Positions 5,144 through 63,118 of a DNA stretch of 64,000 nucleotides are shown one piece after another; positions within the stretch are counted from its first letter, which is position 1, and each line of letters starts with the position of its first letter. The stretch is from Patescibacteria group bacterium. Lineage in GTDB: Bacteria; Patescibacteriota; Minisyncoccia; Phycocordibacterales; PALSA-1337. The translations under genes and the position numbers were made by a program. Under the pieces are notes generated by a model. It had not been told where the DNA came from and did not search any database. It saw only the letters and a list, made by a program, of their open reading frames with translations. The DNA lies in the NCBI GenBank assembly GCA_038065395.1, contig JBBTRB010000003.1, positions 19,851 through 83,850 on the forward strand, written 5' to 3'.

Positions 5144-6421
5144 CTATTTTGCAGCGAAGGTAAAGTCTGACTTGAAGGCAGAATCATCTTTCACATTCCC
5201 TACCATCGCCATATTGAGATGCTGGTCTACGAAGATTTCCTGTGCCAGCTTTTGTATATCCGATGAGGTCACTGCACGAATCTTGGCAATGCTTTCTTCG
5301 AGGGTCTGCACTTTTCCTTTGAGAATCTCTTGTGAACCGACGAACTCCGACCTGGCTTCGGATGTTTCGAGTTCGAGCATGGTTGTACCGATCATGTAGT
5401 TCTTGGCTTTCTCGAGCTCGGCCTCTCCGACAGGTTCTGTTTTGAGACGTATACATTCTTCCATGATCCCTTTGACTGCTTCTCCGAGACGAGATACGTC
5501 TACTCCAGCGGCCAACACCACATTGCCATGGTCGGTATAGGTGTCATGTCCCGCGTTGACGTAATAACAGATGCCGAGTTGGTCGCGCATCTTGGAGAAA
5601 AGTCTCGAACTCATGCCCTTGCCGAGTACCGTCATCATCACATTCATCACCGGGATACGAGGATCGAACAGAGAGAACGAACGAACACCGATAGCAACGT
5701 GGGCTTGGTCAGTCTCTTTGTGCTTTATGACAAAGCGCGGAACATCTTGCTTCTCGATGACTTTGTCTTTGCCTTTCTTGGCAGATACAGAGAGACTTCC
5801 GAACAACTTCTCCACTTGTGTCTGTATCGTGCTCTCATCGAACGAACCTGCGACCACAACAGTAGTTGCCTGAGAGACATAGTGCTCTGAGCGATATGTT
5901 ATGAGCTGCTCTCGGGTGAACGAGCGCACGTGATCTTCAGTACCTGCAATACTCCACCCGGCTGGCTGATCTCCGTGGATCAATGCACTGAGCACATCAT
6001 GCACGTCTCTATGTGGCATGTCCTGATACATACGGATCTCTTCGACGATCACCCCCTTCTCTCGTTCGATCTCCTCTACCGGGAACATTGGGTTGAGATA
6101 CAAGTCCGAGACAATATCGAGAGCCTTGTCGAGTTGTTGTGCAGCGACTTTTGCATAGTAGCCGGTGTACTCCTGACCCGTGAAGGCGTTGTACTGTGCA
6201 CCGAGACCATCGAGCTCTCGAGAGATGTCGGTTGCTTTGGGACGTCGTGGCGTGCCTTTGAAGACCATATGTTCCAAGAAATGAGAGAGACCATTGATAT
6301 TTTTGGATTCATATTTTGATCCGGCTTCAACCATGACCAACACGGTGACCGATGGATTGTCTTTCATCGGGACAGTTATGAGTCGCAGCCCGTTCGGCAG
6401 GATTGTTTTGGTGAAGTTCAT
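5144..6421 (-). CDS. M16 family zinc metallopeptidase (pitrilysin/insulinase-like)
   Basis: Inverted zincin motif HFLEHMVFKGT (HxxEH) near the N-terminus; length 425 aa. Confidence 0.85.
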   Translation of the reverse strand: MNFTKTILPNGLRLITVPMKDNPSVTVLVMVEAGSKYESKNINGLSHFLEHMVFKGTPRRPKATDISRELDGLGAQYNAFTGQEYTGYYAKVAAQQLDKALDIVSDLYLNPMFPVEEIEREKGVIVEEIRMYQDMPHRDVHDVLSALIHGDQPAGWSIAGTEDHVRSFTREQLITYRSEHYVSQATTVVVAGSFDESTIQTQVEKLFGSLSVSAKKGKDKVIEKQDVPRFVIKHKETDQAHVAIGVRSFSLFDPRIPVMNVMMTVLGKGMSSRLFSKMRDQLGICYYVNAGHDTYTDHGNVVLAAGVDVSRLGEAVKGIMEECIRLKTEPVGEAELEKAKNYMIGTTMLELETSEARSEFVGSQEILKGKVQTLEESIAKIRAVTSSDIQKLAQEIFVDQHLNMAMVGNVKDDSAFKSDFTFAAK

Positions 6422-6446
6422 AGAAATGTAAGTTTAACTTTATTTT

Positions 6447-6527
6447 GTCATCCCCATGAAAATGGGGATCCAGGATGTCACCACACTCTGTGGCTAGATC
6501 CTGGATTCCCGCCTTCGCGGGAATGAC
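6447..6527. repeat. RPE-like palindromic repeat element, short form (copy 1)
   Basis: Left arm gtcatccccatgaaaatggggatccaggat, spacer, right arm atcctggattcccgccttcgcgggaatgac. Intergenic between the M16 peptidase start and the glyQS stop. Confidence 0.8.
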
Positions 6528-6529
6528 AA

Positions 6530-7858
6530 CTACTGAATCTTCCCTACCAGATACTCTACCAACTTATCTTCTGCGATACGCTCCTGCGTGCCACTATCAC
6601 GATCGCGTACGGTGACACCTTCTCCTTTTTCGATCGTCTCAAAGTCGACAGTAACGCAAAACGGTGTACCGATCTCATCTTGACGGCGATAACGTTTGCC
6701 GATGTTACCGTTGTCGTCGAAGATAACTCCGGGGATGTTGGCTTTTAGCGTAGAGAATACTTCTTGGGCTTTCTTGATGAGCTCAGGTTTATTCCTGAGC
6801 AGTGGAAAAACTGCCACTTTGTATGGTGCAACTGATGGGGTCAGTTTGAGATAGGTGCGTTTCTCGCCACCCATATCATCCTCGGTATAGGCATCAGTGA
6901 GAACCGCAAGTACGGTGCGGTCGAGACCAAATGATGGTTCGATGCAATGTGGGACGAACCTCTCTTTGCTCTCTTCGTCATAGTATGACAAATCTACCTT
7001 ACTAAATTCAGAGTGTTGCTTGAGGTCGAAGTCCGTGCGATACGCCAGACCATAGAGCTCTTTCTTGCCAAATGGGAAATCGAATTCGAAGTCGATCGTT
7101 CTCTTGGAATAGTGTGCCCTGTCACCGTCGGCAACTTCGAGTTCATGGACTTTGGCAGCGTTGAGTCCCACGTCTTTGGTGAAAGCCAAGACTTCCTGTC
7201 TGAAATGTTCGAAGGTTTTCTCCCACTCTTTTGGGTTGACGAAATACTCGATCTCCATTTGTTCGAACTCACGTGCACGGAACAAGAAATCTCGTGGAGC
7301 GATCTCGTTGCGGAATGCCTTGCCGATCTGTGCCATACCGAATGGCAGTTTCGGATGCAGTGAGTCAAGGATATTCTTGAAGTTCACGAACATACCTTGA
7401 GCTGTCTCTGGGCGCAGATACGACACCGATGAAGAGTCGTTACTTGCTCCGACCTGTGTCTTGAACATCATGTTGAAAGACTTCACCGGTTCCCAAGAAT
7501 TCTTGGTCTCACACTCAGGACAACTATCTGGCAACTGCCAACTCTTGTCTCCTGCTTGTGTGCCGATCTGATCCGCACGAAAACGATGTTTGCACTTTTT
7601 GCACTCTACGAGTGGATCGGCGAAGCCAGAGACGTGACCGGAGGCTTCCCAGGTACGCTGATTCATCAGGATCGCTGCGTCCATACCATACATATCGTCA
7701 CGAGTATCGACGAAACGTTTCCACCAGATCTGTTTGATATTGTTCTTGAGAGCAACTCCCAGTGGCCCATAATCCCAGGTACCAGCCAAGCCTCCATAAA
7801 CTTCCGATCCCTGAAAAATAAAACCTCTGCGTTTACAGAGAGCCACCAACGATTCCAT
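6530..7858 (-). CDS. glyQS: glycine--tRNA ligase (homodimeric GlyQS type)
   Basis: MESLVALCKRRGFIFQGSEVYGGLAGTWDYGPLG is the canonical class II GlyRS N-terminus. Start placed at the ATG preceded by an AAAGAGGA RBS; the ORF extends to 7885. Confidence 0.9.
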   Translation of the reverse strand: MESLVALCKRRGFIFQGSEVYGGLAGTWDYGPLGVALKNNIKQIWWKRFVDTRDDMYGMDAAILMNQRTWEASGHVSGFADPLVECKKCKHRFRADQIGTQAGDKSWQLPDSCPECETKNSWEPVKSFNMMFKTQVGASNDSSSVSYLRPETAQGMFVNFKNILDSLHPKLPFGMAQIGKAFRNEIAPRDFLFRAREFEQMEIEYFVNPKEWEKTFEHFRQEVLAFTKDVGLNAAKVHELEVADGDRAHYSKRTIDFEFDFPFGKKELYGLAYRTDFDLKQHSEFSKVDLSYYDEESKERFVPHCIEPSFGLDRTVLAVLTDAYTEDDMGGEKRTYLKLTPSVAPYKVAVFPLLRNKPELIKKAQEVFSTLKANIPGVIFDDNGNIGKRYRRQDEIGTPFCVTVDFETIEKGEGVTVRDRDSGTQERIAEDKLVEYLVGKIQ

Positions 7859-7892
7859 TGTGTCCTCTTTTTTCATATGTCGCATTGTATAC

Positions 7893-11543: not shown

Positions 11544-12218
11544 CTACAACTGTGACGCCTGCAAGGAAGCATTGATGATACCGTTCACTTGCACCCGTAT
11601 TGGTGAAAAAGTAGAGAGCAACTCGGCCGAGAGATCGTAGGACATGACGAATGGCTTGGTGACTTCATGGTCACCGATATAGCCGAGCAGGTTCAGGATA
11701 CGGAGCGCAGTGAGAGACTCGAGTTCCGGCAATTTCTCAGCGGGCATATGGCCACTTATTCCGACTGTTGACTCTAGACAGTCAAAAAGTTCTGGATGGG
11801 GATCTTCACCTTGCAGGAGGCGCTTGAGTAACGTGGACATACGGACGAGGAGTTGTGCGTGTATTTTTCTACTGTTTTTTAGTTTGTCATTCCCATGAAA
11901 ATGGGAATCCAGGATATCACCATGTCTTGTGAGCAGATCCTGGATTCCCGCTTGCGCCTCCGCTGCGCTTTGGCTTGCGGGAATGACAGACTGCTGCGCA
12001 CTCGTGAGCCTCCACACTTCTTTGCCCCTGACCAAAGAGAAAATACCGAGTGAATAGTCACTGGTATGGTAGCGGAGTTTCGACTTCTCGAGACGGATGC
12101 CTTGCGCGGCGACCGAGACGAGGCCAAGGTCACGCGTGAAGATCGACAACATCTTCCCTGCTTCGCCGTAGGGGCGTGAACCGATCACAAATCCAGGTGT
12201 AGTATGGATGCTGTACAT
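11544..12218 (-). CDS. recO: DNA repair protein RecO (short form) carrying an in-frame repeat insertion
   Basis: N-term GFVIGSRPYGEAGKMLSIFTRDLGLVSVAAQGIRLEKSKLR matches the RecO OB-fold. Codons 78-111 are encoded by the palindromic repeat. Confidence 0.7.
   Translation of the reverse strand: MYSIHTTPGFVIGSRPYGEAGKMLSIFTRDLGLVSVAAQGIRLEKSKLRYHTSDYSLGIFSLVRGKEVWRLTSAQQSVIPASQSAAEAQAGIQDLLTRHGDILDSHFHGNDKLKNSRKIHAQLLVRMSTLLKRLLQGEDPHPELFDCLESTVGISGHMPAEKLPELESLTALRILNLLGYIGDHEVTKPFVMSYDLSAELLSTFSPIRVQVNGIINASLQASQL
11886..11987. repeat. RPE-like palindromic repeat element (copy 2) inserted in-frame in recO
   Basis: 102 bp (34 codons) beginning on a codon boundary. Arms gtcattcccatgaaaatgggaatccaggat / atcctggattcccgc...gcgggaatgac. 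Encodes VIPASQSAAEAQAGIQDLLTRHGDILDSHFHGND. Confidence 0.8.
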
Positions 12219-12224
12219 CGTCTT

Positions 12225-15200
12225 TTATATTCTCACCGAGAACACTTCACCGTATTCTATAGCCGACAGTCCTGTTGTCTTCTTGATCTCCTGTTCGTAT
12301 TTCATAGCAAGAGGTCGCGCTTCTTCGGTGAGTGTAAGAATCGCCACATCATTCACAGAGAGATTTTTCTCTTTGCGAGCATCTTGGATCTTACGGATGA
12401 GTTCACGGAGATCTCCTTCTTCTTTCAAACTCGGAGTGATAGTGATATCGAGCTCGACATCCTGTGCGATCGAAGTGTCTGTTTTGACTTCTTTGACATT
12501 AACCTCGTCCTTCACAAGTTCGACGAGTTCTGGGGTCAACGATATTTCCTTCCTGACTTTGAGTGTCTGTAGTGGCTGACGAACATTGATCTTGGATTTC
12601 ATACGAGCTTCGAGACCGCGTGAGGCGAGATCACGTACGGTTTGCATATCGGTGATGAGGTTCTTATCGACTATTCCTGCTACTGGCCACTGCTCCAGAT
12701 GCACACTCTCCTTGTCACCTCCTACTTCCTGGTAGAGATACTCTGCGAAGAACGGCGTGAATGGCGCCATGACTTTCGCAAGTGTCACGAGAACATAGTG
12801 AGTCGTCTCCAGTGCATGTCGTGCATCTTCGCCACCATCTTTGAATCGGTCACGTGAACGACGCACATACCACTGTGACAAGTCGGCAATGAAGTCACGT
12901 ATCGCGCGTGTAGGTTCAAGTAACACGTACGCATCCAGACCTGTGGTCACATGCCCCACCAGTTCATCGAGCTTGGAAACAATCCATTTATCTAGCACGT
13001 GCGATGAATTGTTCAATTGTTCCTTTGTTGAATTGTTCCTTGTCCCTTCGTACATCTTATAAAACGTCGTGACATTCGTAACCAAGTTGAACACTTTTTT
13101 GATGATCTCATCGACGGTCTTCTGGTCGAAGTTCTTTGACTCGCCAGGTTGGTTGACCGAGTACATCCAGAAGCGCAATGCATCTGCACCATAGAGATCC
13201 ATCATGTCCCATGGGTTGACCACGTTGCCGATGGATTTGCTCATCTTCTTACCCTCAGCGTCGAGGATATGCCCGAGACAGATGACATTCTTGAATGCCT
13301 TGCCTTTGCCCATGAGTGCACCGATCGCATGGAGCGTATAGAACCACCCACGTGTCTGATCGATGGCTTCGGAGATAAAATCTGCAGGATAGTTGGTGGC
13401 TTTCTTGATCCCCAACAGCTTGCCGTCGATACGATCCTTATTCTCAAAAGGATAATGATCCTGTGCAAAAGGCATCGCCCCCGAGTCGAACCATACGTCC
13501 ATGACTTCTTTGACACGCTTCATCGGAGAACCGCATGAACATGTGAGCGTGACTTCATCTATATACGGACGATGAAGATCGAGTTCGTATTCATGGTTAT
13601 GAGGGAGGATGGAGAAATCCAAGACATGGAACTGTGCATTGTGTATAAAATCCACATCTTTGCGCATGTGCATGGACTCAGATCTATTCCAACCCTTGGC
13701 CGCAGCGAACAAGAGGAATGCGGGCGTCTCATGAGTGACGATCAGGATCTTCTTGCCTTCATGAGTACGTTCCATATCGTACAAAAAGTCACCCATGCGT
13801 TTCTTGATATCGGCGAATGTCTCACCTCCTTCGGGTGCCTGGGTAAATCGGTCGTGACCCTTAAAACCTTTCACAAAATCAGAAACACTCGTCCCATCTG
13901 CAGAACCAGTACCGAGTTCACGGAGACGCTCATCTGTATGCATCGCGCCCTTATCGAGACCCCACGTACTGCGAAGTATTTCTGCGCTTTCTTGCGTACG
14001 CACGAATGGTGACACATATATCATATCGAACTTTTCTTTCTTGAGAGCTTCAGCGGCCACAGTGACCTGAGTCTTTCCTTTCTCTGTGAGATGATGCGGA
14101 ACATCTGCCTTACCAGAAAGGATCGCCTTCACGTTATTCTCTGCCTCTCCATGTCGCATGACATAGTAGGTATTCTTGGGCTTCTGCGCGATCTCTGCCA
14201 CAGATCCTACGACCTGCCTTTTGTCACATCCAGTACATGCCCACACAGGCAGAGGCGTACCCCAATACCGTTCGCGTGAGATCGCCCAGTCTTTGACTTC
14301 TCGGAGCCATTCACCGAACCGACCCTGTCCGATATGAGCAGGTTCCCAAGCAATCTCTGTGTTCTCTGTGACGAGCTTGTCACGGAGCTCGGACATACGG
14401 ATATACCACGAGTCACGCGCAAAATAGATAAGCGGTGTTTTGCAACGCCAACAATGTGGGTAGGTATGCTCGTGTTTCTCTTTATGGAAAAGGAGGCTGC
14501 CCTCTGGGCGGAGCGCCAAGTTCTTGATGATCTCCACGGCAACTTCTTCGCTCTTCACAAACTTACCTGCAAGAAAACCAGCCTCAGACTTGAATGTGCC
14601 GTCATCGTTAACCAGATGATATTTTGGTAAGCCCACCTTTGTGCCAAGCTCAAAGTCGTCTTGGCCATACATCGGCGCGATATGGACGATGCCTGTACCA
14701 TCTTCAGTTGTAACAAAGTCCCCCGCGTATACCTTGAAGGCATTACTGAGCTTGTCTTTCTCTGTGCCGGTCACTCCGTCTTTCAAGAATGGATACAGTG
14801 GTTCATATTCGAGACCAACGAGGTCAGAGCCTTTGAATTCTTTTTCAATTTGATAGGATTCTTTGATCAAACTGAGACGAGTTTTTGCAAGGATGACTCG
14901 GGCGTCCGCGGTCTGATCCTGGATTCCCGTTTTCACGGGAATGACAATCTGGACATACTCAACATCGTTCCCTACCGCCAATCCGACGTTGCCCGGAAGA
15001 GTCCACGGAGTCGTCGTCCATGCCAAAAGAAATGTATTCTTGAATCTTGGATCCTGAATCTTGAACTTAACGTAAACCGACAAGTCTTTGACTGTCTCAT
15101 ACCCCTGCGCGAGTTCATGCGACGAGAGCCCGGTACCGCAGCGCGGACACCATGGTACGACTTTGTAATCCTTATAGAGGAGTTTCTTCTGTTCAACTGT

Positions 15201-15707
15201 CTTGACGATATTCCACAACGACTCGATATAGTTCGGCCTGTAGGTCACGTAGGGATCCTTGAGGTCGACCCAGTACCCCATGCGGTCAGTGAACTTCTCC
15301 CATTCACCGACATATCTCCAGACACTCTCTTTGCATTTCTCATTGAACTTTTCTATGCCGTAGACTTCGATCTCTTTTTTCGACTTGAGTCCGAGCTCTT
15401 TCTCGACTTGGAGTTCCACAGGTAGACCGTGAGTGTCCCAGCCTCCCTTACGACGAACATGGAAGCCCTGCATGGTTTTGTAACGAGGGATAGCGTCCTT
15501 GAAAGCACGAGCCTCGAGGTGGTGGATACCGGGCATGCCGTTGGCTGTCGGAGGTCCTTCGAAGAAGGTGAACTCTCCTTGTGGCGCGTCTTTGTTCAGA
15601 GTCTTGGCGAAGATCCCCTTCTCCTTCCAGGACGCAAGGATACGCTCCTCACGTTCAGCATGAGTGCTTTTGGTATTCTTCTTTTCTGGGGTAACAGGTT
15701 CAGACAT
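12225..15707 (-). CDS. ileS: isoleucine--tRNA ligase with an inserted histidine-phosphatase (PGAM-like) domain
   Basis: 1160 aa with KMSKS, WCPRCGT, TTPWTLP editing and DLHRPYIDE motifs. An extra ~200 aa between the Zn knuckle and DLHRP carries YVMRHGEAENN and SPFVRTQESAEIL. Confidence 0.95.
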   Translation of the reverse strand: MSEPVTPEKKNTKSTHAEREERILASWKEKGIFAKTLNKDAPQGEFTFFEGPPTANGMPGIHHLEARAFKDAIPRYKTMQGFHVRRKGGWDTHGLPVELQVEKELGLKSKKEIEVYGIEKFNEKCKESVWRYVGEWEKFTDRMGYWVDLKDPYVTYRPNYIESLWNIVKTVEQKKLLYKDYKVVPWCPRCGTGLSSHELAQGYETVKDLSVYVKFKIQDPRFKNTFLLAWTTTPWTLPGNVGLAVGNDVEYVQIVIPVKTGIQDQTADARVILAKTRLSLIKESYQIEKEFKGSDLVGLEYEPLYPFLKDGVTGTEKDKLSNAFKVYAGDFVTTEDGTGIVHIAPMYGQDDFELGTKVGLPKYHLVNDDGTFKSEAGFLAGKFVKSEEVAVEIIKNLALRPEGSLLFHKEKHEHTYPHCWRCKTPLIYFARDSWYIRMSELRDKLVTENTEIAWEPAHIGQGRFGEWLREVKDWAISRERYWGTPLPVWACTGCDKRQVVGSVAEIAQKPKNTYYVMRHGEAENNVKAILSGKADVPHHLTEKGKTQVTVAAEALKKEKFDMIYVSPFVRTQESAEILRSTWGLDKGAMHTDERLRELGTGSADGTSVSDFVKGFKGHDRFTQAPEGGETFADIKKRMGDFLYDMERTHEGKKILIVTHETPAFLLFAAAKGWNRSESMHMRKDVDFIHNAQFHVLDFSILPHNHEYELDLHRPYIDEVTLTCSCGSPMKRVKEVMDVWFDSGAMPFAQDHYPFENKDRIDGKLLGIKKATNYPADFISEAIDQTRGWFYTLHAIGALMGKGKAFKNVICLGHILDAEGKKMSKSIGNVVNPWDMMDLYGADALRFWMYSVNQPGESKNFDQKTVDEIIKKVFNLVTNVTTFYKMYEGTRNNSTKEQLNNSSHVLDKWIVSKLDELVGHVTTGLDAYVLLEPTRAIRDFIADLSQWYVRRSRDRFKDGGEDARHALETTHYVLVTLAKVMAPFTPFFAEYLYQEVGGDKESVHLEQWPVAGIVDKNLITDMQTVRDLASRGLEARMKSKINVRQPLQTLKVRKEISLTPELVELVKDEVNVKEVKTDTSIAQDVELDITITPSLKEEGDLRELIRKIQDARKEKNLSVNDVAILTLTEEARPLAMKYEQEIKKTTGLSAIEYGEVFSVRI
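14916..14945. repeat. solo arm of the RPE-like element inside ileS (in-frame)
   Basis: atcctggattcccgttttcacgggaatgac; on the coding strand it encodes VIPVKTGIQD (10 codons). Confidence 0.6.
15041..15065. repeat. 25-nt mini-repeat (CYTGAATCTTRRATCCTRWATCTTG family) inside ileS
   Basis: tgaatcttggatcctgaatcttgaa encodes KFKIQDPRF; similar to two copies in argS. Confidence 0.4.
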
Positions 15708-15758: not shown

Positions 15759-17498
15759 TTACATCCTCTCAGGAATTTTGATACCGAGGATCCACAGACC
15801 ATTCCTCATCACCGTTAGAAACGCTTTGGTTACTGCGACGCGATATGCGGACAACGGTTCCTTTTCATCGACAATAACATTCGTGGCGTAGAAGGCATTG
15901 AATGCTCCTGCTAGTTGGATCAAATATCCTGCCACATGTTGCGGTGCATACTCGGCACGTGCACGAGCGATGATATCTGGAAAACGAACTATCAGTCTTT
16001 CGAGAGTACTGACTTGGATAGACGGCATGTCCTGAATCTTGAATCCTGTATCTTGAATCTGTTTTGCCTTCTCCAGAACCGCTCCCGCTCTCACTGCCGC
16101 ATACTGCAGATATGGACCCGAGTCTCCTTCGAATGATACCGACGTCGCAGAATCAAAGATCACGTCACTACCTACGGCTTGACGGAGGATCGTGTATTTG
16201 ATCGCACCGATCGCGATCTCATCACTTACTTTCTCAGCTTCTTCGGGACCAAATTCTCTACCCGAAATCTTTTCTGTTACCAGTTCCTTGATATCATCGA
16301 TCAGACTTTCTGCAGCAATGATATTGCCTTTGCGTGAAGACATTTTCCCTGAAGCAAAGCGCAACATGCCATGACTCATGTGTTTGGTCTTGTCCCCGAT
16401 CTTTGGATTGACCAACGAAAACACTTTCAGAAGTACTTTGAAATAATCACTCTGTTCATTGGCAGTGATGATCACTGACTCATCGAGATCTGGATACAAT
16501 TCGAACTTTTTGCTGTTGAGGCCGAGCTCTTTGGTCTCGTAGGTTGGTAGACCATTGGAAGTGATGAAGACGCGTGTATGCACTCCATAGTCTTCTCCTT
16601 TGAAAATAGTTGCACCCTCACTTTCTATGAATACTTTGCCGAGAAATTCTTTGACGATCTGTACACCCGCATCGGCGACTTCGCTTTCGAAGAAAAAGTT
16701 ATTAAACTTCGTACCGAGACGCGCATAGATCGTGTCAAAATATTCGAGACTCCACTTCCTCCCTTCTTCATACATCTTGTTGATTTCTGGATCAGACTTT
16801 TCGAAGATCTGTTTGTTGATCGCATGTATCTCCTTCTGTGCCACCGCATCGTCTTCGAAAGCATTCGAACCGATCACGTACATCTCACCGAGCCATTTCA
16901 CCTTCTCAGTAATTGTTGAACTCTCTTGAATCTTAAATCCTAAATCTTGCCTCTTGTTTTGTATTGCCCAAATCGTCTTCGCCACATGCAACCCCACATC
17001 ACCCTGGTAACAGGCACGGACAACCTCTGCACCTGATGACTGGACCAGACGTGAAATAGACTCGCCTACTGCGTTCGACATCAAGTGTCCAATATGAAAA
17101 ACCTTGAAAGGGTTTGGGTCGGTATACTCGACCATGACCTTTTTGCTTTTCGAATCAGTCGCCCACCCATATTCCCCGTCACCACTCGCGATCTCCACTA
17201 CCTTCCCCGCAAAGACAGCATCTTTTATCTTGAAGTTGACGAACCCGGGACCAGCGATAGTGATCTGCTCCACAAACTCGAGATCAGCCTTCTCAAGTTC
17301 TGCGACGATCTCTTCTGCCAAAGCACGCGGGCTGACTCCCTTCTTTTTTGCGTACGCCAATGCGACGTTGGTAGCATAGTCACCATGATCCAGGCTCTCT
17401 GGATATTCGAGACGAACTGAGGAAGGGTCCGTAGTAGCAAGGCCTACCCTTGCAAGCGCCGTAACGAGGGCGGCAGTGAGTTCTTGACGCATATTCAT
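15759..17498 (-). CDS. argS: arginine--tRNA ligase
   Basis: 579 aa with HIGHLMSNAVGES (HIGH) and MSSRKG (KMSK) class I motifs. Confidence 0.9.
   Translation of the reverse strand: MNMRQELTAALVTALARVGLATTDPSSVRLEYPESLDHGDYATNVALAYAKKKGVSPRALAEEIVAELEKADLEFVEQITIAGPGFVNFKIKDAVFAGKVVEIASGDGEYGWATDSKSKKVMVEYTDPNPFKVFHIGHLMSNAVGESISRLVQSSGAEVVRACYQGDVGLHVAKTIWAIQNKRQDLGFKIQESSTITEKVKWLGEMYVIGSNAFEDDAVAQKEIHAINKQIFEKSDPEINKMYEEGRKWSLEYFDTIYARLGTKFNNFFFESEVADAGVQIVKEFLGKVFIESEGATIFKGEDYGVHTRVFITSNGLPTYETKELGLNSKKFELYPDLDESVIITANEQSDYFKVLLKVFSLVNPKIGDKTKHMSHGMLRFASGKMSSRKGNIIAAESLIDDIKELVTEKISGREFGPEEAEKVSDEIAIGAIKYTILRQAVGSDVIFDSATSVSFEGDSGPYLQYAAVRAGAVLEKAKQIQDTGFKIQDMPSIQVSTLERLIVRFPDIIARARAEYAPQHVAGYLIQLAGAFNAFYATNVIVDEKEPLSAYRVAVTKAFLTVMRNGLWILGIKIPERM
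16029..16055. repeat. 27-nt mini-repeat copy inside argS
   Basis: Coding strand caagatacaggattcaagattcaggac encodes QDTGFKIQD. Confidence 0.4.
16931..16957. repeat. 27-nt mini-repeat copy inside argS
   Basis: Coding strand caagatttaggatttaagattcaagag encodes QDLGFKIQE; 22/27 nt identical to the 16029 copy. Confidence 0.4.
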
Positions 17499-25237: not shown

Positions 25238-25253
25238 TAATGACCCTGGTTTT

Positions 25254-25431
25254 GTCATCCCCGCGAAGGCGGGGATCCAGGAGTAAGGGCGTAGCTACTT
25301 ACTTAACTCTATACAATTACAAAAGTCAGCATCATGTACATGAATGCTGACTTTCTGTTTTCTGTGATTAGATAAACCGATCGAACCATATACTGAAAGT
25401 GATTCTGGATCCCCGCCTTCGCGGGGATGAC
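25254..25431. repeat. RPE-like palindromic repeat element, long form (copy 3)
   Basis: Arms gtcatccccgcgaaggcggggatccaggag / attctggatccccgccttcgcggggatgac flank an AT-rich core with a perfect 9-bp hairpin agtcagcat...atgctgact. Confidence 0.8.
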
Positions 25432-25438
25432 ACGCAAT

Positions 25439-27986: not shown

Positions 27987-28028
27987 ATAGATATATTTAT
28001 CTGGTAATTACGTTCATTATACATGCGT

Positions 28029-28110
28029 GTCATCCCCGTGAAAACGGGGATCCAGGATATGACCACGTCATGTGACCAGAATCCTGGATTCCCGCATACG
28101 CGGGAATGAC
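28029..28110. repeat. RPE-like palindromic repeat element, short form (copy 4)
   Basis: gtcatccccgtgaaaacggggatccaggat ... atcctggattcccgcatacgcgggaatgac; ends 4 nt before the folD stop codon. Confidence 0.8.
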
Positions 28111-28113
28111 ATT

Positions 28114-38673: not shown

Positions 38674-38712
38674 TTACCCCACACCTGCTCTCACTATATC
38701 TAAAAAATAATC
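38674..38712. repeat. promoter-like 39-nt motif, copy at left end of the island
   Basis: ttaccccacacctgctctcactatatctaaaaaataatc; 38/39 identical to 45677-45715. Confidence 0.5.
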
Positions 38713-45236: not shown

Positions 45237-45677
45237 CTAGAAAAGTTTAGGGTTTAAAATACCGCTTGAGAAAGCTTCCTTTAGAGGATTCGGGATGGAA
45301 ATCCTGTTTTTTAGGAAAAAGTTTCTGTATAAATTTGAAAGAGGCGGATTGGATGTATAAAAGATTTCACGCACGCCAAGCAATGCAAGCAGAGCGAGTA
45401 GAGAAAAGACGAGAGAAAGTGCTTCCTTTGCCGGAAGGACAGTAAACATATTTTGCCATGCCTGAATGTGCTCCATTGGCGACATTTTACAGATAGAGCT
45501 ATGGCCCGGCATGAACGGACAGTTAATAGGCTTTGGTCCGTAGTGTCCCGCCATTGCAAAATGGGATATTCCAAAAAGAAGAGTGACTAGAGTAAGCCCG
45601 ATGATAGCAAAGGTTAGAATTTTGAGGATTTTTGATCGCACGGTGTTAATTATATATTTTTGTTGGCCAATCGTCAT
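45237..45677 (-). CDS. hypothetical membrane protein
   Basis: 146 aa; the start codon lies inside the 39-nt motif. Confidence 0.4.
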   Translation of the reverse strand: MTIGQQKYIINTVRSKILKILTFAIIGLTLVTLLFGISHFAMAGHYGPKPINCPFMPGHSSICKMSPMEHIQAWQNMFTVLPAKEALSLVFSLLALLALLGVREIFYTSNPPLSNLYRNFFLKNRISIPNPLKEAFSSGILNPKLF

Positions 45678-46090
45678 TACCCCACACCTGCGCTCACTAT
45701 ATCTAAAAAATAATCCTGAACCCCCATTTTACCTGTAAATGCAGGTGTTCACCATTTTCCACCCTTTTTAAATGGGGGTTGACCACCGTTTTTTCACCGT
45801 TTTTAAACGGTGGTTACCCCCACTCTCACTCGCTATCTCGCTCAAAAAGTAGTTCCCGTTAATTTCCCGTTATTACGGGAACTTGGAAAGGCCTACCCCA
45901 CAGTCTCATTCACTATTTCGAGCTACTTCACCGATGACCGTAATCACCGTAATTTTGGACCGGACCAACTCACCTGTTATTCTCCTGTTCTATCAGGTGA
46001 GTACCCGCTAATTCACCGCTAATAAGGGTAGGAGAAACAGGTGCTTATCAGGAGTTATCAGGCTGCAAGGTTTTACCGTAAATCACAGCT
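45677..46090. repeat. non-coding array: three promoter-like motifs, each followed by duplicated 8-10 nt iterons and hairpins
   Basis: Motif copies at 45677, 45826 and 45893. Iteron pairs caccgttttt x2, cccgtta x2, accgtaat x2, cctgttat x2, ccgctaat x2, ttatcagg x2, several with adjacent inverted copies. Confidence 0.5.
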
Positions 46091-55386: not shown

Positions 55387-56973
55387 ATGGCTACAAACGT
55401 TGAATACTTCATGTATGCCCGCAAATCCTCTGAGTCCGAGGATCGGCAGGAGCAATCAATCGAGGATCAGATAAATCGATTAAAAGAACGAGCTAATTCC
55501 CTTGGTATTTCAGTCAAAGAAATCTTGACCGAAGCGAAGTCGGCCAAACAGCCAGGACGACCTGTATTCAACGATATGTTGAACCGAATCAAGAAAGGTG
55601 AAGCTCAAGGAATTCTCTGTTGGCAAATAAACCGCCTCTCACGTAATCCCATTGATAGTGGCGCGCTCTCGTGGATGCTTCAGCAGGGTGCTTTGAAAGC
55701 TATACAGACGATGGAACGAGAGTACTTACCGGAGGACAATGTACTTCTCTTTAGCGTTGAGAGCGGAATGGCGAATCAGTTCATCATCGAGCTCCGCAAA
55801 AACACAAAGCGAGGCATGCATGGTAAAGCAGATCGTGGATGGTTTCCCTCAAAAGCTCCAGCTGGATACGTCAACGAACGACTCGAACACACGATTCAGC
55901 CTGATCCAGAACGTTTCGACCTCATCAGAAGGATGTGGGACCTTATGCTTACCGGAAATTACACGCCAGTGTCGATAGCTGAGATCGCAAGCAAGGAATG
56001 GGGTTATCGGTCCCTGAAAAGTAAGCGGAGTGGCGGAGTCGAGATGGCTCCAAGTGTAATTTATAAAATGTTTAAGAACATTTTCTATACGGGAATGTTT
56101 GAGTGGGGTAAGAAAATCTATAAAGGAAATCATAGACCGATGATCACGCTTGAGGAGTATGATCGAGTCCAGGCTATCTTCGGCAGGACCGGAAAGCCTC
56201 GAGGTCAAACGCACGAGTTCGCATTCACCGGACTTATTCGCTGCGGTCTGTGCGGTGCGATGTATACCGGTACTGAAAAAACCAAGACAATAAAGAAAAC
56301 CGGTGACCTCAAAACATACACCTACTACCATTGTTCAGGCCACAAGAAAGGCGTGCCATGTCCAAAGCGAAATCCAATCAATCTTATTGACCTCGAACAG
56401 CAGATCGAGCTTCTGCTTGAGGAGTACACGATACTCCCCGAATTTCAGACCTGGGCTATTGAGGCTTTGAATCGTAACAACGATAAGGAAATCGAGGAGC
56501 GTACAAAGATTTATGAGATGCAGCATAAGACTGTCGTCGAGTCGCAGACTGAGCTCGATAACCTAACTAAGATGCGTTACCGCGATCTTATCGATGACGA
56601 CACCTTCGTCAAAGAGCGTGACATCTTAAAGGATAAGATTGCCCGATTACAGGCGAAACTCCGAGAAACCGAGGGACGTGCTTCAAAGTGGCTGGACCTT
56701 ACTGAACAGGCGTTTAGCTTTGCCTGCTACGCTAGAAAAGAGTTTATTATGGGCGATCTTCAGCGAAAGCGTGAGATATTCTCATCACTTGGCCAAAACT
56801 TCTATCTCAAAAGTGGCAAAGTCTTTATCACTGGCAATGAATGGTTCCAGCCAATCAAAGAAGCATACCCTGAATTTAGGGCTAAATTTGAGAGGTTAGG
56901 ACTGAGAGAATACGCCTCTGTTGAGGCACGAAATGTTGCTTTTGCAACACTCATTCTCGAATGGGGTGCCTAA
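55387..56973 (+). CDS. large serine recombinase
   Basis: N-terminal resolvase catalytic domain YARKSSESEDRQEQSIEDQ, recombinase domain, zinc ribbon CGLCGAMYTG...YYHCSGH, C-terminal coiled coil. Confidence 0.85.
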   Translation: MATNVEYFMYARKSSESEDRQEQSIEDQINRLKERANSLGISVKEILTEAKSAKQPGRPVFNDMLNRIKKGEAQGILCWQINRLSRNPIDSGALSWMLQQGALKAIQTMEREYLPEDNVLLFSVESGMANQFIIELRKNTKRGMHGKADRGWFPSKAPAGYVNERLEHTIQPDPERFDLIRRMWDLMLTGNYTPVSIAEIASKEWGYRSLKSKRSGGVEMAPSVIYKMFKNIFYTGMFEWGKKIYKGNHRPMITLEEYDRVQAIFGRTGKPRGQTHEFAFTGLIRCGLCGAMYTGTEKTKTIKKTGDLKTYTYYHCSGHKKGVPCPKRNPINLIDLEQQIELLLEEYTILPEFQTWAIEALNRNNDKEIEERTKIYEMQHKTVVESQTELDNLTKMRYRDLIDDDTFVKERDILKDKIARLQAKLRETEGRASKWLDLTEQAFSFACYARKEFIMGDLQRKREIFSSLGQNFYLKSGKVFITGNEWFQPIKEAYPEFRAKFERLGLREYASVEARNVAFATLILEWGA

Positions 56974-57037
56974 TGGGATTCGAACCCATGCTGCGGCTTT
57001 CACAGAGCCGAGTGCTAACCATTACACCATAGGCACC
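56962..57037 (-). tRNA. tRNA-His (GTG) with encoded G-1 and CCA
   Basis: Manual fold: 8-bp acceptor stem with G-1:C73, anticodon loop CUGUGAA, T-loop TTCGAAT, 3' CCA encoded. Confidence 0.85.
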
Positions 57038-57724: not shown

Positions 57725-57808
57725 GCACGGGTGGCGAAATTGGTAGACGCACTACCTTGAGGTGGTAGCGCCCATTTGGGTATGGAGGTTCGAGTCCTCT
57801 CCCGTGCA
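57725..57808 (+). tRNA. tRNA-Leu (GAG), class II with long variable arm
   Basis: Acceptor GCACGGG/CCCGTGC, anticodon loop TTGAGGT, variable arm gcccatttgggt, T-loop TTCGAGT. Confidence 0.85.
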
Positions 57809-62769: not shown

Positions 62770-62909
62770 ACCAACCTTTCTGATCCTCTCGGATCTCTTG
62801 CAATCCCCTCTCGGGGATATTATGTATGTTCTTGCTCTCGCAAGAGGCTTACAACGTGCAAACCTGACTGAACTCTATGCTTTTTCGGGAAGATGTCAAA
62901 TGCGGTTGT

Positions 62910-63095
62910 GTCATCCTCGCGCAGGCGGGGATCTAGGAGCAAGGGCATGGCTACTTATTTAATATCTATACAACCACAAAACATTAGATACTATCCCTGT
63001 AAGTAAATGCCGAACCTATCACATTTATTATTTACATAGCCTAAGTCGACTATATACTGGGAGTGATTCTGGATCCCCGCCTGCGCGGGGATGAC
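62910..63095. repeat. RPE-like palindromic repeat element, long form (copy 5)
   Basis: gtcatcctcgcgcaggcggggatctaggag ... attctggatccccgcctgcgcggggatgac. Inner termini aagggcatggctactta... and ...atatactgggagtg match the 25254 copy. Confidence 0.8.
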
Positions 63096-63118
63096 ACAGG
63101 ACAGAGAGATATGTAGGT

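Follow-up and report, generated by a model that had tools for sequence, protein, structure and literature searches.

The closest described counterparts of the element reported here are the Neisseria Transformation Sequence (NTS) and related hairpin repeats. The element is a 30-nt hairpin lying in frame within ileS, the isoleucyl-tRNA synthetase (IleRS) gene, of a groundwater Patescibacteria group bacterium (assembly GCA_038065395.1, contig JBBTRB010000003.1, positions 19,851 to 83,850; this stretch of 64,000 nt is called the window below). The NTS is defined as CGTCATTCCCGCGMAVGCGGGAATCYRG and contains the dRS3 repeat ATTCCC-N8-GGGAAT, and a degenerate Ssn-related motif (SRM) has been given as HGTCWYN(0-2)YYVSBRHN(0-5)WNVSBRGN(0-2)RNCYNB (PMC11893778, Nat Commun 2025). 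According to the same study, SsnA and its homologues, which are small nucleases with a single GIY-YIG domain, bind and cut NTS/SRM repeats in the form of single-stranded DNA (ssDNA), acting on only one of the two strands, with binding and cleavage of the repeats described for Neisseria, N. elongata, N. wadsworthii, and Wolbachia. The ssn genes, which encode small single-domain GIY-YIG proteins (cd10448), are typically flanked by repeats in the arrangement NTS-ssn-NTS, and SsnA of N. meningitidis lowers the integration of NTS-bearing transforming DNA. Most Ssn homologues are found in Pseudomonadati. Patescibacteria are absent from the main text of that paper, as are the words "intragenic" and "within genes", and an analogy to REP sequences is drawn by its authors (PMC11893778).

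Repeats that are read in frame within housekeeping genes are known from a second system, the Rickettsia palindromic elements (RPEs), which are about 105-146 bp in length (Ogata et al. 2000, reviewed in PMC3184786). Here we find that the ileS element is RPE-like in its behaviour and SRM/NTS-like by sequence. We assign a probability of roughly 0.8 to the interpretation that its 30 bases are one NTS/SRM unit lodged in frame in ileS, where it encodes a tolerated passenger of ten residues.

Results

A solo hairpin arm in the reading frame of ileS

The ileS gene occupies 12225..15707 on the minus strand and forms an open reading frame (ORF) of 1160 amino acids. Its closest relatives are IleRS proteins of Patescibacteria/Paceibacteria, with a best identity of 72-74%, and the structures matching it best are entries deposited as IleRS2 (8c8u/8c9d). 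The original prediction, made from the letters of the window, was that a single arm of an inverted-repeat family present in the window is embedded in frame in the region of ileS that encodes the editing domain, and this is borne out by the sequence and by pattern and profile matches. The solo NTS/SRM-type arm, GTCATTCCCGTGAAAACGGGAATCCAGGAT, is located at 14916..14945 on the minus strand. On the coding strand, from 14945 to 14916, it reads GTC ATT CCC GTG AAA ACG GGA ATC CAG GAT, corresponding to codons 255-264 of ileS, which encode VIPVKTGIQD (V255-D264), 19 residues past the conserved TTTPWTLPGN block in the CP1 editing domain. An empty site would read ...GTCCAGAT|CAGACC.... The 30-mer contains a perfect hairpin, ATTCCCG-TGAAAA-CGGGAAT, and the predicted ssDNA fold of the arm has a stem of 8 bp and an energy of -7.9 kcal/mol (z = -2.8 versus shuffles).

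At a tolerance of up to three mismatches, the ileS 30-mer has 4 sites in the window, compared with 0.00 in 100 shuffles that preserve dinucleotide composition. Searches with a core pattern and with a profile hidden Markov model of the arms recover 11 arms there and no other match, with E = 3.9e-11 for the ileS arm. The SRM expression matches 8 window sites, including 14919-14946(-), where 0.19 are expected in simulated sequence. On sequence grounds, the ileS 30-mer is a member of the NTS/SRM hairpin repeat family. It is nearly identical to NTS, dRS3, and SRM sequences in its order of GTCATTCCC-stem-loop-GGGAATCCAG and shares with them a directional 5' GTCAT flank, the hairpin, and a multicopy occurrence, both singly and in inverted pairs. 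Compared with the 28-nt NTS consensus, the copy at 6501-6528 has 1 difference (27/28) and the ileS arm has 3 (25/28), two of which constitute a compensatory change from C-G to T-A in the stem. With 3 mismatches the ileS arm is rejected as a strict NTS in the sense used for queries in PMC11893778 (28-mer, at most 1 mismatch), and we therefore class it as SRM/NTS-like; only the copy at 6501-6528 has 1 mismatch. Cleavage by Ssn is a published property of the described repeats, whereas the likeness of the arm to them is one of sequence and predicted hairpin.

Ten residues without counterpart in IleRS homologues

We aligned the best 120 IleRS homologues and measured the segment D248-E290. This segment comprises 33 residues, the modal length, in 47 of the 120 homologues and 43 residues in the query, within an overall range of 22 to 79 residues among homologues. 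After removal of VIPVKTGIQD, the query segment is YVQIQTADARVILAK, which aligns residue by residue with the modal YVKVKVGDEIYILAK, and the solved IleRS2 structures 8c8u/8c9d show a gap of exactly 10 residues at the same site. Of the earlier estimate that this position carries roughly 12 extra residues relative to E. coli IleRS, the presence of extra residues stands and the count does not: the excess is exactly 10, as measured against modal homologues and IleRS2 and not against the E. coli enzyme. The two checks proposed with the prediction, an alignment of IleRS orthologues and a comparison of the DNA with the arm, thus gave a 10-residue excess and the profile match described above. The residues VIPVKTGIQD, whose presence in IleRS sequences lacking the repeat would have spoken for a native origin, were found in none of the best 120 homologues. 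Peptides that vaguely resemble them occur in this loop or one close by in three homologues, namely, P0117 (QPKAGIQK), P0012 (VPARNASGIAD), and P0005 (LPAQAGE). We rejected these as decayed copies of the arm because their DNA has no similarity to the arm profile; P0005 has a different hairpin of 18 nt.

As a separate observation, the IleRS gene of another member of the Patescibacteria (L003, 3705-3746) contains a different perfect hairpin of 18 nt, CCTGCCTGCGCAGGCAGG, which encodes LPAQAG, a 6-residue insert approximately 20 residues downstream of the arm site. The L003 contig consists of the locus duplicated in inverted orientation and is probably an assembly artefact.

In an AlphaFold2 model of IleRS residues 1-520 (46-sequence alignment; mean predicted local distance difference test score, pLDDT, of 82), strands at 250-256 and 269-274 flank an unstructured loop at 257-268, indicating that the ten-residue insert makes the turn of a beta-hairpin in the CP1 editing domain longer. 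At residues 261-266 the pLDDT drops under 50, compared with averages of 96-98 in the adjacent 10-residue blocks 241-250 and 271-280. The insert is predicted to form the disordered tip of this beta-hairpin, in a surface loop.

An identical IleRS of 1160 amino acids is encoded on 7 contigs from separate assemblies, among them NCBI GCA_964357315.1 (CAYHKE010000001.1, 761,713 bp) and two "Hain_H41_02um" replicate assemblies at ENA. Given that these contigs were assembled independently, the insert is not an artefact. An assembly chimera is thereby refuted together with two related explanations, a chance resemblance to the arm and an ancestral stretch of IleRS sequence, and we leave this group of explanations next to no probability. 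In favour of chance, an arm usually lacks stop codons in five of its six reading frames, so an open frame alone, as in ileS, is weak evidence. Against it stand the arm profile score with zero matches in shuffled sequence, the homologue alignment in which the residues have no counterpart, and the 7 contigs.

Further features of ileS were noted beside the arm. A His_Phos_1 histidine-phosphatase domain (PF00300, with an RHGE motif) is inserted in the query IleRS at amino acids ~520-700 (window ~13600-14150), separating the two halves of the catalytic domain, and most Patescibacteria homologues also have a PF00300 insert. In two relatives, ileS was called as two ORFs (L002, 2115-5613, 518 and 613 amino acids; L001, 1475-4433, 426 and 565 amino acids), the second of which begins with the PF00300 domain in L002. 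A 26-nt repeat within coding DNA, with copies 88% identical, is present at 15038-15063 in ileS and at 16030-16055 and 16924-16949 in argS. It encodes FKIQD/FKIQE once in IleRS and twice in arginyl-tRNA synthetase, possibly by chance.

Inverted pairs of arms in the window and in recO

Of the 11 arms in the window, only that of ileS is solo; the other ten are arranged as five inverted pairs whose TGTCAT termini point outward. One of these pairs lies in frame inside recO, the gene (11544..12218, minus strand, 224 amino acids, RecO_N match) in which a corresponding arm read in the same frame as that of ileS had been predicted. This holds: the frame of the recO arm, SVIPASQSAAEAQAGIQD...ILDSHFHGNDK, is the frame of the ileS arm. 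The two-arm element at 11884..11990 (arms 11884-11916 and 11935-11988) translates as SVIPASQSAAEAQAGIQDLLTRHGDILDSHFHGNDKL. Its second arm, a variant with a long loop, has the reading VIPASQSAAEAQAGIQD. The element is positioned in a hypervariable linker past RecO_N and is missing from most recO orthologues, which are mostly 185-200 amino acids in length compared with 224 here. An orthologue of 77% identity has a partly decayed copy, orthologues of 48-49% identity have full elements, and one of 58% identity has none. Separately, we observed in the recO linkers of the distant relatives P0255 and P0251 the same long-loop variant (VIPASRSEAKAQAGIQ) and another (VIPAPGLRRGQAPAGIQD).

The other pairs are intergenic. 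An 84-nt element at 6446..6529, with inverted arms and a 24-nt spacer, is located between ORFs at 5144..6421 and 6530..7885 and folds at -28 kcal/mol (z -8.2). The element at 25253..25432 (180 nt, 124 nt between arms) lies between a dihydrofolate reductase-like gene and rplK, and a related element of 190 nt at 62908..63097 lies upstream of a pseudouridine synthase gene. An 85-nt element at 28028..28112 separates a SIMPL/DUF541 gene from folD. No copy is closer to the ileS arm than the left arm of this element, with 2 compensatory differences. Stem changes among the window copies are paired (CCCCATG/CATGGGG, CCCGCG/CGCGGG, CCCGTG/CACGGG), which identifies the hairpin as the conserved feature.

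In the flanks of the two-arm elements of the window, which end in TGTCAT...ATGACA, we found no target-site duplication or direct repeat. We rejected a classical miniature inverted-repeat transposable element on this basis, and on the basis that the ileS copy has one arm only. An Rfam search of the window placed no family on the arms, its only matches being two tRNA genes, at 56965-57036 (-) and 57725-57808 (+). The window also contains a 39-nt direct repeat, TTACCCCACACCTGCKCTCACTATATCTAAAAAATAATC, with copies of 97% identity at 38674-38712 and 45677-45715, both intergenic beside minus-strand genes.

Arms and GIY-YIG genes in other genomes

An exact scan for the 31-mer TGTCATYCCCRYGAARRYGGGRATCCAGGAT, with one genome per species, gave at least 116 loci. 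Among the matches listed are Patescibacteria classes, Planctomycetota, Omnitrophota, Nitrospirota, Proteobacteria, Bdellovibrionales, Zixibacteria, and others, and about one-third of the loci listed are labelled Patescibacteria. The arm was present in 1 of 2.9 million viral contigs, so that phages are not an evident vector.

GIY-YIG-like ORFs of about 95 amino acids adjoin arms in five fetched loci (L016, 5686-6101; L101, 2054-2435; L039, 1072-1477; L089, 1110-1464; L119, 7356-7856). Inverted arms are present on both sides of the ORF in the first four of these, and L119 has one arm just upstream. Loci L016 and L119 are labelled Saccharibacteria, and the arm-adjoining ORFs are highly conserved across phyla. 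All three ORFs tested, those of L016, L101, and L039, match the Pfam GIY-YIG family PF01541. In a homologue search with an arm-flanked GIY-YIG protein, 7,997 of 8,000 scored candidates had E <= 1e-5, which marks the nuclease family as very large in environmental sequence data. The matches are environmental proteins of about 95 amino acids, and those with a source name are from Patescibacteria; no Neisseria entry is among the best 120 homologues of the arm-flanked proteins. Arms flanking small single-domain GIY-YIG genes in related genomes are a further likeness to the NTS-ssn-NTS layout, of which the short two-arm elements of the window look like gene-less derivatives.

Two-arm elements within housekeeping genes

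Our census comprised 241 arms, from the window and from the fetched loci, the latter having been selected for a perfect arm. In this set, 156 arms belong to two-arm elements and 85 are solo, and 35 are positioned well inside open frames of at least 200 amino acids. Ten such frames were checked by Pfam, and all proved to be real genes: tgt, polA, secA (in two genomes), uvrA, dnaG, hisS, and an M50/RseP protease (in two genomes), all of these in other Patescibacteria, as well as a TPR protein gene. In each of the ten, the frame of the element is that used in ileS and recO, VIPAKAGIQD ... ILDSRLRGND. This consistent use of a single frame suggests filtering by the tolerance of protein loops.

These data bear on an alternative origin of the ileS arm as the remnant of a recO-like two-arm element that lost its spacer and second arm by in-frame deletion. 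The two-arm form is the commoner one in the census, and the other verified intragenic copies are all two-armed or have a second arm that is decaying (recO of P0242, L071). Moreover, a repeat search extends the similarity of the ileS site to 58 nt at 74% (14890-14947 versus 6472-6529). However, a profile of 45 short two-arm elements aligns the arm alone in ileS and finds no trace of spacer or second arm. We therefore rejected the 58-nt similarity as a remnant of these parts; the additional "AGGATG" match coincides with codons for the conserved ILAK residues of IleRS and is thus native sequence. Solo arms are also frequent, and the net excess in ileS is exactly one arm, that is, 10 codons. The absence of any spacer or second-arm trace in the sequence and the net gain of one arm favour an event involving a single unit, and we consider a deletion remnant unlikely.

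In secA, a two-arm element is present at the same loop in two genomes (L022, 5587-5670, and L033, 1689-1772) whose proteins are 72% identical, and the same applies to the M50 protease (L071, 1424-1500, and L101, 3226-3312; proteins 66% identical). In both pairs, the arms are near-identical in DNA, the spacers are too different for alignment, and synonymous divergence in the codons beside the element is ordinary. Either permissive loops have been hit repeatedly, or the arms have been homogenised by a process acting at the DNA level. As these loci were selected for a perfect arm, the apparent conservation of the arms is subject to ascertainment bias.

The secA and M50 pairs could be taken as a hint of constraint at the DNA level and thus of a co-opted insert in ileS. 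The peptide might aid IleRS, for example, in contacts of CP1 with tRNA or a partner, or the DNA hairpin might be cut by Ssn and in this way restrict how readily incoming DNA replaces the locus. The latter would be in keeping with the lowered integration of NTS-bearing DNA through SsnA in Neisseria (PMC11893778), and the ileS arm is a perfect, undecayed hairpin. Set against this, most IleRS homologues lack the insert, and a disordered loop is predicted. The pattern of the secA and M50 arms is subject to the bias in locus selection, and re-insertion into permissive loops accounts for it equally well. A role as a cut site is further weakened by the outcome of our searches for an Ssn gene in the window, which were negative (see Discussion). 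We hold co-option of either kind to be very improbable.

Discussion

The most likely interpretation is that the ileS insert is a tolerated selfish passenger and not a functional part of IleRS. The NTS/SRM family is dispersed in the host genome as single hairpins and inverted pairs, and one single unit would have been copied into ileS. With a length of 10 codons and a stop-free frame, the unit leaves the ileS ORF open. A length that is a multiple of three, an open frame, and a position at a floppy surface turn together explain how the essential enzyme survived and why the unit persists in translated form. The unit probably arrived through the spreading process of the family itself. By analogy with Ssn and with REP/RAYT systems, the likely agents would be hairpins of ssDNA as intermediates and a nuclease of the Ssn type, whose gene would lie in another part of the genome.

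Several points weigh against this interpretation. The arm-flanked GIY-YIG proteins are putative Ssn nucleases, so assigned from their size, their single GIY-YIG domain, and the flanking arms. No GIY-YIG/Ssn gene was found in the 64-kb window by a regular expression, by phmmer with GIY-YIG sequences, or by a profile of the arm-flanked ORFs. That IleRS activity is unaffected by the insert is presumed, its neutrality being read from the predicted structure only. Finally, databases contain no IleRS relative of more than 74% identity, and the 90% cluster has a single member; an empty site at the DNA level is consequently not available for dating the insertion.

In comparison with RPEs, the ileS element is likewise a short palindromic repeat in frame in a housekeeping gene of a small-genome bacterium; it leaves the ORF open, is absent from orthologues, and belongs to a family that is also intergenic. 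RPE-encoded peptides are reported to be located on protein surfaces. The ileS arm is in frame, absent from orthologues, and situated at a permissive site, where it accounts for 10 extra residues at a disordered hairpin tip. It differs from RPEs as a single 30-nt hairpin from another lineage, and we rejected RPE membership on its length of 30 nt and its Patescibacteria host, setting it apart on these two grounds without sequence comparison to the RPE consensus. The element also resembles REP, REPIN, and BIME sequences, which consist of hairpin units of about 30 nt, single or in inverted doublets, and the two-arm elements of the window have no target-site duplication. Its 5' end is GTCAT and not GTAG, however, the protein encoded at related loci is a GIY-YIG nuclease and not a Y1 transposase, and REPs are by definition extragenic. 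A REP/REPIN-RAYT system was rejected on the conserved 5' (T)GTCAT and the GIY-YIG gene of related loci, no search aimed at RAYT having been made. From the described NTS/SRM repeats, the element differs in its Patescibacteria host, in the translation of the ileS copy within an essential gene, and in the lack of an ssn gene in the window.

It is conceivable that the ileS arm is part of a wider pattern, which we propose tentatively and at somewhat less than even odds. NTS/SRM hairpins may systematically colonise essential housekeeping genes across Patescibacteria, almost always in one frame (VIPAKAGIQD...ILDSRLRGND) and often at the same orthologous loop (secA, M50 protease, recO, and possibly ileS), with near-perfect arms while spacers and synonymous sites diverge. 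They would then constitute a counterpart of RPEs across the candidate phyla radiation (CPR), tied to a known nuclease family. If so, either Ssn-linked homogenisation or re-insertion is ongoing, or there is selection for hairpins inside essential genes.

A literature search retrieved no paper containing the repeat-encoded peptides and none of relevance on RPEs together with GIY-YIG or on CPR together with palindromic in-frame repeats. Together with the missing term "intragenic" in the Ssn paper, this indicates that SRM hairpins translated within essential genes of Patescibacteria seem to be undescribed in the literature searched.

In conclusion, the ileS arm is a real, and not unprecedented, case of selfish DNA inside a housekeeping protein. 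It joins two bodies of work that are unlinked in the literature we searched, namely, that on Ssn/NTS hairpins (2025), mostly from Pseudomonadati and discussed as intergenic, and that on RPEs of Rickettsia. For annotation, peptides of the VIPAKAGIQ/LDSRLRGND type in CPR proteins are to be read as repeat-derived and not as lineage-specific functional motifs. Should the wider pattern hold, it would account for many odd "VIPAKAGIQ/LDSRLRGND" peptides in databases of metagenomic proteins and would provide a natural set of substrates on which to test the action of Ssn nucleases outside Neisseria. The repeats would then also supply ultra-small bacteria with loop insertions in their proteins.

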